DNA of 63,183 bases, filler included, from Vezdaea acicularis (lineage: Eukaryota), in assembly GCA_026025075.1 (NCBI GenBank). It is 5 parts of 5 records of this genome, joined end to end, with 100 filler letters (N's around TTAATTAATTAA, not from the genome) between each part and the next. Parts side by side here need not be neighbours in the genome. Positions count along the whole stretch, not along the records: positions 42,571 to 56,211 come from JAPEUI010000234.1; 4 more parts are not named here. One strand, given 5' to 3'. Position numbers and translations under genes: made by a program. Shown here piece after piece: positions 14,305-56,311 of this stretch; positions within the stretch are counted from its first letter, which is position 1, and each line of letters starts with the position of its first letter. Under the pieces are notes generated by a model. That model saw nothing but the letters and a program-made list of their open reading frames with translations. It ran no database searches and had not been told where the DNA came from.

Positions 14305-14404
14305 NNNNNNNNNNNNNNNNNNNNNNNNNNNNNNNNNNNNNNNNNNNNTTAATTAATTAANNNNNNNNNNNNNNNNNNNNNNNNNNNNNNNNNNNNNNNN
14401 NNNN
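14305..14404. other. Artificial contig spacer
   Basis: 44 N + TTAATTAATTAA (stops in all frames) + 44 N. Confidence 0.98.
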
Positions 14405-28643: not shown

Positions 28644-28743
28644 NNNNNNNNNNNNNNNNNNNNNNNNNNNNNNNNNNNNNNNNNNNNTTAATTAATTAAN
28701 NNNNNNNNNNNNNNNNNNNNNNNNNNNNNNNNNNNNNNNNNNN
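28644..28743. other. Artificial contig spacer
   Basis: 44 N + TTAATTAATTAA + 44 N. Confidence 0.98.
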
Positions 28744-42470: not shown

Positions 42471-42570
42471 NNNNNNNNNNNNNNNNNNNNNNNNNNNNNN
42501 NNNNNNNNNNNNNNTTAATTAATTAANNNNNNNNNNNNNNNNNNNNNNNNNNNNNNNNNNNNNNNNNNNN
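42471..42570. other. Artificial contig spacer
   Basis: 44 N + TTAATTAATTAA + 44 N. Confidence 0.98.
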
Positions 42571-50067: not shown

Positions 50068-51461
50068 ATGTTCGACGGACTCTTCATGCTGCTCACTTTG
50101 AGCGCGGTAATGGCAACAGCGTGAGCTTCAAATATTACTCTCTTGAGACTTCTGTATCTAGAGATGCTAACAAGGCGCCTGTAGGTCATTCCTCGCCGGC
50201 GCGCTCCCATTGTCCTTCTCCTTATCACCATCACGACTGCGACTTATATCTATAATCGGCATGGGCGTACTTGTCGGCACATCCTTAATAGTCATCATCC
50301 CCGAAGGCATCGAGACTCTCTATAGCGCAAGCACACCTTCCCAAGCTCACGCCCACACAAAGCGAACTACCTACAGTCAAGACTCCGACGTGCGGTGGCC
50401 ATCAATAGAGGCGCGATCAGCATATCCAAAGAGTTTCGTACCTGATCTTCATAATGGGAACATCAAATCTATACTCAGAAGGGAAGCAGCTGTCATCGGC
50501 GCCTTCCCTCACCCCTCCGAGCACGATCCTCAAGATCTTGTGGACAGCCGCCCAACTCACAAAGGCGACAACCCCCCTCCAGATGTACATACTCAAAAAG
50601 AAGTCTCTGACAGCCTCGAGAGCCACGAGGTCGAAGCCGAATCTACTTCTCCCCACGCCTGGGTAGGCCTCTCCCTCATTCTCGGCTTCATACTCATGTT
50701 CCTAATCGACGAGCTCCCGCGCCACGCATCCTCCTCTCAAAGCCCTCCCGAACCATACCACATATCCCTCGACAACCTCAGCCAGGGACTCCACCGCACC
50801 TCATCCCCAGCCCACGACCCCGAAGCCGAGGGTTTCCTCCAACCGCGCTCTTCCAGCGGCCCCTCGTCGCGCAGTACCGCAACAACAACAGGTCTCGTCA
50901 TCCACGCGGCCGCGGACGGGATTGCGCTCGGCGCGTCGAGCTCGACGGACAACACGAGTCTGGGCTTCATTATTTTCATTGCCATAATGGTGCACAAGGC
51001 ACCTGCAGCATTCGGACTCACATCCGTGCTACTAAAGCAGGGCCTGACGAAGAGGGAGGCAAGAGCTCACTTGATCATCTTCAGTCTCGCCGCTCCAGTG
51101 GGAGCACTAGTGACGTGGTTCTTAGCGCATCTGCTCGGAGGAGGCGGGAGCGGGAGCGGAGAGAGGACTCAGTGGTGGACAGGCGTTTTGCTGCTTTTTT
51201 CTGCGGGGACCTTTTTGTAAGTTGCGCGCTTGCCTCCTAGCAGAGAGATCCAGAGGGGCAAAGCTAACTCTTGGTGCTAGGTACGTGGCCATGCATGCGA
51301 TGCAAGAAAGCAGCCCCTCGTATAAGACTGAGGCGCTGAATGGATATGCGGAGGGAGGCCCACGGCAGCAGGAGGAGCCTAGGAGGATGAGAGACACCCT
51401 GGCGGCGGTCGCCGGGATGCTGCTGCCGCTTTTGACGCAAGTGGGACATCACCACCATTAG
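50068..51461 (+). CDS. ZIP9/Atx2-like zinc/manganese transporter
   Basis: GVLVGTSLIVIIPEG, GLVIHAAADGIALG, HKAPAAFG, LFSAGTFL/YVAMH; 3 exons. Confidence 0.92.
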
Positions 51462-51711
51462 AAGTAGCACTTTCCATGTTGGTCAATTGAGAATGAATCC
51501 AAGCAAAACTAAACCACAGTCTACTGCGCCAGTGTAGATATGCGAGAGAACACCCACCACCCGCCCGAAAAGCTTCCCCCCAACCACCCCATCCATGCTC
51601 ACGCAACAGACCACGAATTCGAATCCCACAACAACCAAAACCTGCATCCTACCCCACACATCTTAAGACCTTAACCCCCCCCCCCCCCCCCCCAAAAAAA
51701 AAAAACAAAAA

Positions 51712-51898
51712 AAAATTGTCCGATATGGGGGGGCGCCATCTTAACCGTGAGGGGTTTGAAGTAAAGTCTCGCCGTATCTATCTCAACAAATGGCTTGCGA
51801 CGAGTCTCGTGATGGGGGAATTGAGCCAAAGCCCCATCTCGACCCGTCAATTAAGTGAGGCGCCTTATCGCTACACCATTCTGCCCCCAGTGATCGGC
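51712..51898 (-). ncRNA. Putative Pol III-type structured non-coding RNA, class unassigned
   Basis: TATACATA 30 nt upstream, box A-like TGGTGTAGCG, box B-like GGCTCAATTCC, T9 run at the 3' end. Nested helices: CCGAT/ATCGG, TGGGGG/CCCCCA, GGCGCC/GGCGCC, CTTAATTG/CGGTTAAG, GATGGGG/CCCCATC, CTCGTCG/CGGCGAG. Confidence 0.6.
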
Positions 51899-52348
51899 GA
51901 GGTTTGATGCTTGGTTGTTGTATGTATAGAGCAACTGCCTTTCTTCCGCACTTCTGGAAGCTACCAGGATTTGTTAGGGGTTGGGTGTATGCGGTGGTTG
52001 GTGCTTGTGTGCGGTTTTCGGTGCAGAGGGATAGGAAGTAAGGATGGTGCAAGGAAAGGGCAAGCTGCAAGTACAGCTTGTTGTGTCGAACGCCGACCGG
52101 GGCGTGTGCAATAGTGGGATGGAGGAAGTTGCGCGATAAACAGTAGGGATTGGGCGACGGCCTCTACAATCACATACAATCAATGATATCCACGAGCCTT
52201 GGGACTGCAATTGCATTCTATTCATTGTCGTGCGGATGGTACTATGCATAATATGTACAGTCGTCATACATATAAGCACGAACGACTTTCTTGGGTTACC
52301 AGACGCCAAGCCCAACCCTTTCGAAACCCCTCATATTATGGTTCATAC

Positions 52349-56211: not shown

Positions 56212-56311
56212 NNNNNNNNNNNNNNNNNNNNNNNNNNNNNNNNNNNNNNNNNNNNTTAATTAATTAANNNNNNNNNNNNNNNNNNNNNNNNNNNNNNNNN
56301 NNNNNNNNNNN
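56212..56311. other. Artificial contig spacer
   Basis: 44 N + TTAATTAATTAA + 44 N. Confidence 0.98.

Follow-up and report, generated by a model that had tools for sequence, protein, structure and literature searches.

Organization of the locus

The stretch of Vezdaea acicularis DNA analysed here (the window, 63,183 nt) contains an 887-nt gap with two convergent genes on either side, and a candidate for a Pol III-type unit lies within this gap on the minus strand. The flanking genes encode a ZIP zinc transporter and a DUF3176 protein; the last exon of the ZIP gene and its stop at 51459-51461 were deduced from the open reading frame (Table 1). The DUF3176 gene is on the upstream side of the candidate, and its stop is 451 nt from the candidate's first base. 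The DUF3176 protein shows 42-45% identity to its nearest named relatives, which are from lichen-forming fungi, and up to 48% identity to other relatives. Such distant relationships (42-48%) indicate that the host belongs to a poorly sampled lineage of the Pezizomycotina. The two longest frames spanning the region were translated and compared with protein records; no shared words were detected, which lends no support to a coding reading of the region. The window also contains eight blocks of 44 N (352 N in total), which form four pairs about 14 kb apart (at 14305-14404, 28644-28743, 42471-42570, and 56212-56311).

Table 1. Features of the candidate and of its flanking genes (positions in the window)
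Feature	Positions	Strand	Remarks
ZIP zinc-transporter gene	50171..51461	+	Pfam PF02535, E 1e-33 (large exon)
G19 homopolymer	51675..51693	minus	directly follows the T-runs; related-strain contigs break or gap here
T12 run, second terminator-like site	51694..51705	minus	one G between T9 and T12
T9 run, Pol III terminator-like	51707..51715	minus	starts 4 nt past the terminal stem
Putative transcript, ~185-190 nt	51707..51898	minus	body 51898-51716 plus first T-run; both ends predicted
Terminal stem, 3' strand AUCGG	51720..51724	minus	followed by ACAA, then the T-run
Hairpin 1, GAUGGGG/CCCCAUC	51811..51838	minus	14-nt loop; pair probability 0.85-1.0
B-box-like GGCTCAATTCC	51817..51827	minus	+72; 1 mismatch; T-loop-like, in the loop of hairpin 1
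A-box-like site of the first-pass annotation, TGGTGTAGCGA	51868..51878	minus	3 mismatches
Alternative A-box-like site GGGCAGAATGG	51876..51886	minus	2 mismatches; overlaps the first A site
Terminal stem, 5' strand CCGAU	51893..51897	minus	pairs with 51724-51720; pair probability 0.9-1.0
TATA-like octamer TATACATA	51921..51928	minus	first T 30 nt before G51898
DUF3176 gene P0001	52349..54085	minus	PF11374; stop 52351-52349

A first-pass annotation of this DNA had described minus-strand motifs between two convergent genes, and both the motif positions and the gene orientations were borne out in the sequence. The TATA-like octamer TATACATA, which had been placed at -30, is read at 51928-51921. 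The B-box-like motif GGCTCAATTCC, reported with one core mismatch and in a hairpin loop, was likewise found at 51827-51817. With respect to the B-box consensus GGTTCRANTCC, its mismatch is a C for T at the third position, and a B box of the Pol III type-2 kind is present with this single deviation. For such a gene, the A box was expected 30-60 nt before the B box. The A-box-like motif of the annotation, TGGTGTAGCG(A), was correctly positioned (its start is at +21) and turned out to be weak: it differs at three positions from the A-box consensus TRGCNNAGTGG, and the overlapping alternative site differs at two.

The candidate body ends in ...AUCGGACAA, followed by T9. The statement that T9 and then T12 lie just after the fold was correct (51715-51707 and 51705-51694), and an oligo-T terminator of the type-2 kind is present in T9, 4 nt past the end stem, and then T12. 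Homopolymer runs of at least 8 nt are rare, with eight in the 63-kb window, and three of them are within 51675-51715 (T9-G-T12-G19). A perfect 11-nt inverted repeat, ACAACAACCAA/TTGGTTGTTGT (51628-51638 with 51911-51921), encloses the candidate together with the homopolymer tail. This repeat is without a flanking direct repeat and may be of chance origin.

Comparison with known RNA families and tRNAs

The whole window was scanned with Rfam 15, as had been proposed in the first-pass annotation, and none of the 4,227 families matched at gathering scores. These families cover 5S, U1-U6, U3, SRP, RNase P/MRP, Y, vault, and snoRNAs, among others. In a relaxed scan of positions 51600-52000 (E<=10), tRNA (RF00005) was not detected, and the sole match was MIR394 (14.8 bits), located on T and G runs. 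ARAGORN found no tRNAs in the whole window, and with intron search on the candidate it found none at thresholds down to 85%. The calls obtained at 80% were on both strands, each needing a 52- to 60-nt "intron," and were rejected as implausible. We also considered whether mRNA-type introns could be splitting a tRNA. Spliced forms were generated in silico, each by removing one or two GT/GC...AG stretches (25-160 nt), and none of the 1,716 gave a tRNA in ARAGORN; this possibility was rejected as well. Altogether, a tRNA identity was rejected because the candidate contains no cloverleaf, D arm, or anticodon arm and because Rfam and ARAGORN were negative. The view of the annotation, that the candidate is not a tRNA and belongs to no catalogued family of RNAs, agrees with the Rfam scan, the ARAGORN search, and the spliced forms. 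A by-eye comparison with SRP, U5, U6, RNase P/MRP, C/D, and H/ACA motifs yielded no match, the Rfam scans being the real test. In a literature search, we found no description of such an RNA, a result that does not in itself show it to be unpublished.

These results raise the question of a functional, undescribed fungal Pol III noncoding RNA. Such an RNA would form a closed rod that carries a U-tail and a T-arm-like hairpin, would act as a protein scaffold, and would be conserved in structure and not in sequence. The absence of a match to any Rfam family is as expected for it, and so is the gene-like layout with paired ends, the TATA at -30, and a strong terminator. We consider a functional RNA of this kind unlikely, in view of the results on its fold, its homologues, and its divergence given below.

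Frequency of the layout in real and shuffled DNA

Pairs of an A box (at most two mismatches) and a B box (at most one mismatch) were counted in 708 kb, comprising the window and 79 fungal loci. We found 19 pairs in the real DNA and 8, 11, 13, 16, and 13 pairs in five block shuffles; A and B box pairs at such stringency are at chance level. This result is in line with the possibility that the locus is ordinary spacer or 3'-end DNA, in which only chance has brought together the motifs, the paired ends, and the poly(dA:dT)/poly(dG:dC) cluster, and from which no stable small RNA is made. We regard such a coincidence as quite possible, though we would not call it probable.

Different results were obtained with a composite layout, in which a run of at least six T had four features upstream of it: a TATA, an A box, a B box, and an end stem with 5 or more base pairs. 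The TATA had to be at -36 to -22 from the stem start, and one mismatch was allowed in the B box and two in the A box. The composite was present at 2 of the 237 real T-runs and in 2 of 35,550 controls made by dinucleotide shuffling of the DNA upstream of these T-runs. As the window contains 26 T-runs, this amounts to a chance rate of approximately 0.0015 per window, an optimistic value that is lower than the true rate, since the definition was written post hoc with the candidate already known. Shuffled controls seldom show the full Pol III-type layout, which speaks for a Pol III-type unit, a functional RNA included, and against mere coincidence of motifs. Also difficult to reconcile with coincidence is the geometry of the unit, in which T9 closely follows a terminal stem whose 5' end sits 30 nt from the TATA.

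The two composite positives were the candidate and the control locus L061, a metagenome contig of another fungus. The unit at L061:5669-5835 (plus strand) was the sole other positive in 645 kb of control DNA. It contains TATATAG, an end stem, T9, and two boxes that each have a single mismatch, the A box TAGCTCAGTTG and the B box GTTTCGATTCC. On visual inspection, this independent positive resembles a tRNA that has decayed, with remnants of the D arm and the anticodon arm. It had no Rfam matches at E<=1, and ARAGORN called it solely at the 70% threshold. Because this second positive resembles a tRNA-derived unit, the composite seems to pick out real Pol III-type units, another point against a chance origin of the candidate. 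The two units have in common the TATA, the A- and B-box-like motifs, T9, the end stem, and the lack of an Rfam match. In contrast to the candidate, the L061 unit keeps its D-arm and anticodon-arm remnants and has the better boxes, and there is no sequence similarity between the two beyond the T-run. In addition, TATATAG was found approximately 30 nt upstream of a tRNA-Thr(AGU) gene with an intron, located in a related fungus at L005:8139-8223 (minus strand) and also present in L006 and L007. This shows that a TATA before a true Pol III gene occurs in the related-fungus group.

Predicted fold of the candidate

Folding of the minus strand gave a minimum free energy (MFE) of -64.3 kcal/mol with a z-score of -2.42, and this energy was reached by 4 of 200 shuffles. 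For the plus strand, the MFE was -65.7 kcal/mol and the z-score was -2.00. The candidate fold ranks at the 2.9th percentile when compared, after correction for GC content, with 3,092 windows of 187 nt taken from the 63-kb sequence. Thus, the z-score check that had been proposed along with the fold was only partly favorable: the minus strand is modestly unusual, and the other strand is similar to it. The description of the candidate as "highly structured" did not survive this comparison, nor did it agree with the minor role of most of the proposed helices.

The MFE structure has a frequency of 0.0045 in the ensemble. The terminal stem and hairpin 1 are common to the MFE and centroid structures, and among the inner helices, a high pair probability was obtained for hairpin 1 alone. 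The other helices of the first-pass fold (UGGGGG/CCCCCA, GGCGCC/GGCGCC, CUUAAUUG/CGGUUAAG, UCG/CGA, and CUCGUCG/CGGCGAG) have pair probabilities of 0.02-0.21, and for most of the inner ones the range is 0.02-0.16. Accordingly, the end pairing that had been proposed was retained in its CCGAU/AUCGG part (0.9-1.0) and has low probability in its UGGGGG/CCCCCA part. Of the two proposed hairpins, the GAUGGGG/CCCCAUC helix was recovered (0.85-1.0), and the UCG/CGA and CUCGUCG/CGGCGAG pairings are of low probability. The GGCGCC/GGCGCC and CUUAAUUG/CGGUUAAG helices are minor in the ensemble. The energy of the first-pass fold is -54.6 kcal/mol, or -61.7 when completed, compared to the MFE of -64.3; in the folding model it is a near-optimal alternative and not the dominant predicted structure. 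It contains three G-U pairs, which had been said to work on the minus strand only. This claim was overstated, as the mirrored fold on the plus strand still has -51.8 kcal/mol and the plus-strand MFE is, as given above, lower still.

A perfect 7-bp pairing, CUCGCCG/CGGCGAG, between 51901-51895 and 51774-51768 (minus strand) rivals the second hairpin of the first-pass fold. The same pairing makes up the "acceptor stem" of the low-threshold ARAGORN call.

With respect to the two explanations introduced so far, a fold that is marginal, alike on both strands, and made up of mostly minor helices favors coincidence, and the existence of competing pairings such as the 7-bp one points in the same direction. 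For a functional RNA with a conserved shape, the ill-defined structure (the low MFE frequency and the weak inner helices) is an argument against.

Homologues and copies

A second copy of the candidate was not found in the 63-kb window. A metagenome scan for the pattern of an A-like motif followed, after 30-55 nt, by a B-like motif gave 0 matches. As a synteny route, we used 79 loci encoding DUF3176 relatives with 26-46% identity. A ZIP gene near the DUF3176 relative was detected in none of the 79 (tblastn, E<=1e-5), showing that synteny is not kept. In blastn of the candidate against these loci, the matches were T-runs and short chance words only. Finally, a covariance model, R1, was built from the candidate sequence and the first-pass fold and was run over 708,558 bases. 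The candidate itself scored 242 bits; the sole other match had 9.1 bits over 26 nt and came from four near-identical loci. Thus, the homologue search that had been suggested in the first-pass annotation returned no homologue from the pattern scan, from the 79 loci by blastn, or from the 708,558 bases searched with R1. The lack of homologues and second copies in the window, the 79 loci, and the metagenome scan is as expected for a chance assembly of motifs. It counts against a functional RNA, for which the pattern scan and blastn gave nothing and R1 recovered essentially the candidate alone.

The copy searches also bear on the possibility that the candidate is what remains of a mobile element that has decayed. 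Such an element could have been a tRNA-related SINE like AfuSINE2, or else a small element with inverted repeats (MITE). The T-arm-like B box and the Pol III-type layout would suit such an origin. Moreover, the ends of the candidate form an imperfect inverted repeat (15 nt, 73% complementary), and the perfect 11-nt inverted repeat described above (51628-51638/51911-51921) surrounds the whole unit. Low-copy, tRNA-related SINEs are known in Aspergillus fumigatus: AfuSINE2-type elements are reported to be 140-493 bp long, to contain A and B boxes, and to have target-site duplications of 4-14 bp, and some of them to be transcribed (PMC5063351). Compared with these elements, the candidate is similar in its size, which is within 140-493 bp, in its A- and B-box-like motifs, in its low copy number, and in its tRNA-unrelated body. 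In the same comparison, it differs in that no target-site duplication, tRNA-related head, second copy, or 3' repeat tail was seen.

Specifically, the flanks 51960-51893 and 51726-51630 share no direct repeats of at least 5 nt, and no target-site duplication is therefore present at this length. In addition to the window, 645 kb of related fungal DNA contained no second copy. On the sense strand, there is no A-rich or simple-repeat tail, and the T-runs would stop Pol III. Furthermore, each of the four runs analyzed below has contigs with a diverged version of the region, which is thus not a recent insertion. An AfuSINE2-type SINE was rejected on the failed target-site-duplication test (direct repeats of at least 5 nt) and the lack of another copy in the window. 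A MITE was rejected on its short and imperfect end repeat (15 nt at 73%), the lack of a flanking direct repeat, and the lack of another copy in the window and the 79 loci. Given these results, an origin from a mobile element is very improbable.

Divergence among related strains

A search for sequencing runs containing the stretch returned four DNA runs of one moss-metagenome study (X1 to X4) and no RNA run. Contigs of the four runs were compared with the window as the reference. Across the candidate, we counted 20 differences in 345 nt plus 9 gaps in X1, 11/171 in X2, 14/242 in X3, and 10/89 and 13/152 in X4. On the ZIP-gene side, X1 had 58 differences in 1,207 nt. On the DUF3176 side, X3 had 0/239 differences directly beyond the candidate, and longer contigs through the DUF3176 gene had 19/2,054 (X1) and 5/897 (X2). 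The candidate, with approximately 6% divergence, changes at least as fast as its flanks, and it is thus no island of conservation among the strains. This suggests that the product of the candidate, if any, is not under strong sequence constraint. Such divergence would be unremarkable in spacer DNA, and the missing conservation island is a further argument against a functional RNA.

In one of the X4 contigs, the sequence ceases to match the window precisely at the B-box motif, which seems to be replaced there; this also favors a chance origin. Among the differences listed, the two indels are deletions: one of 3 nt at 51764, where the strand is unpaired, and one of 1 nt at 51814, in a C5 run beside the loop. 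Both spare the helices, as expected for a functional RNA. They are at places that the fold tolerates, but these places are short homopolymers, where indels are common anyway.

A step in divergence is located near 51950-51970: the divergence is about 5-6% on the left, in the candidate and the ZIP gene, and 0-0.9% on the right, in the DUF3176 gene and its 3' region. Contigs of three runs end or begin near these positions, and the step may be a haplotype or recombination boundary. In the ZIP gene, the loop region at 50438-50606 is highly variable, with at least 22 differences in approximately 170 nt in comparison to the X1 and X3 contigs.

Discussion

Between two convergent genes of V. acicularis, we found a TATA-like octamer, A- and B-box-like motifs, and T-runs in Pol III-type spacing, two robust predicted helices, and a combination of these features that is rare in shuffles. 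Our tentative reading is that the candidate is a single, lineage-restricted, and weakly constrained Pol III-type unit, which would be either a tRNA relic or a young locus; we prefer this reading without calling it established. In its properties, the candidate comes closer to a relic derived from a tRNA, or to a young Pol III locus, than to a conserved RNA gene. Our confidence is divided among the explanations because the layout is rare and its match in control DNA looks real, whereas the boxes and the fold are weak and no constraint is seen in near relatives.

Among the closest known systems are tRNA genes, as well as relics of tRNAs that are still transcribed; these have type-2 promoters for Pol III, and the yeast ZOD1 and ETC-type loci belong here too. 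Like tRNA genes and their relics, the candidate has its B box in a T-loop-like hairpin, an A-box-like motif approximately 50 nt upstream of it, and an oligo-T terminator, and its location is intergenic and single-copy. Unlike in tRNA genes, approximately 85 nt separate the T-arm-like hairpin from the 3' strand of the end stem, and there is no cloverleaf. Animal Y and vault RNAs are Pol III RNAs with paired 5' and 3' ends and a 3' U-tail that serve as protein-binding scaffolds, and their sequence evolves fast while their shape is kept. Y and vault RNAs are not known from the Pezizomycotina. The candidate resembles them in its paired ends and its predicted 3' U-tail; they differ from it in being about half its size, and the candidate has no Rfam match. 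In Neurospora crassa, pri-milRNA loci outside the classical families are reported to be transcribed by Pol III, and one of them to be tRNA-linked (PMC3547838). On that account, fungal Pol III makes RNAs beyond the classical set. In contrast to the pri-milRNAs, the candidate has no long Dicer-type hairpin, its best hairpin being 7 bp.

If the candidate is such a relic or young Pol III locus, its expression could proceed as follows. TFIIIC would bind the B-box-like motif GGCTCAATTCC in the T-arm-like hairpin, with help from the weak A box, and TFIIIB would be placed on TATACATA at -30. Pol III would then start near 51898 and stop within the T9 run. The predicted product would be a 185- to 190-nt RNA with ends paired by CCGAU/AUCGG and a G-run/C-run helix, and its 3' U-tail would be of the kind bound by the La protein. 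Transcription, the RNA ends, factor binding, the tRNA ancestry, and any function are what we infer from the motifs and their arrangement.

We also considered whether the Pezizomycotina could have a class of Pol III RNAs that is as yet undescribed, with the candidate as the first example seen. These RNAs would be approximately 190 nt long and would change fast in sequence and keep their shape. Members of such a class would consist of a rod of paired ends, a T-arm-like hairpin doubling as an internal promoter, and a La-binding U-tail. To this proposal we give little credence.

Should the candidate not be transcribed, it would be a useful calibration for motif coincidence: in about 1 of 1,000 windows, spacer DNA may by coincidence combine a TATA and a T-run with paired ends, a good B box, and an A box of loose match, as estimated with the post hoc test. 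If, as we tentatively propose, the candidate is a transcribed Pol III-type unit, it would add one more case to the poorly charted non-tRNA Pol III loci of filamentous and lichen-related fungi. Such loci show the reuse of tRNA-type promoters for new small RNAs.
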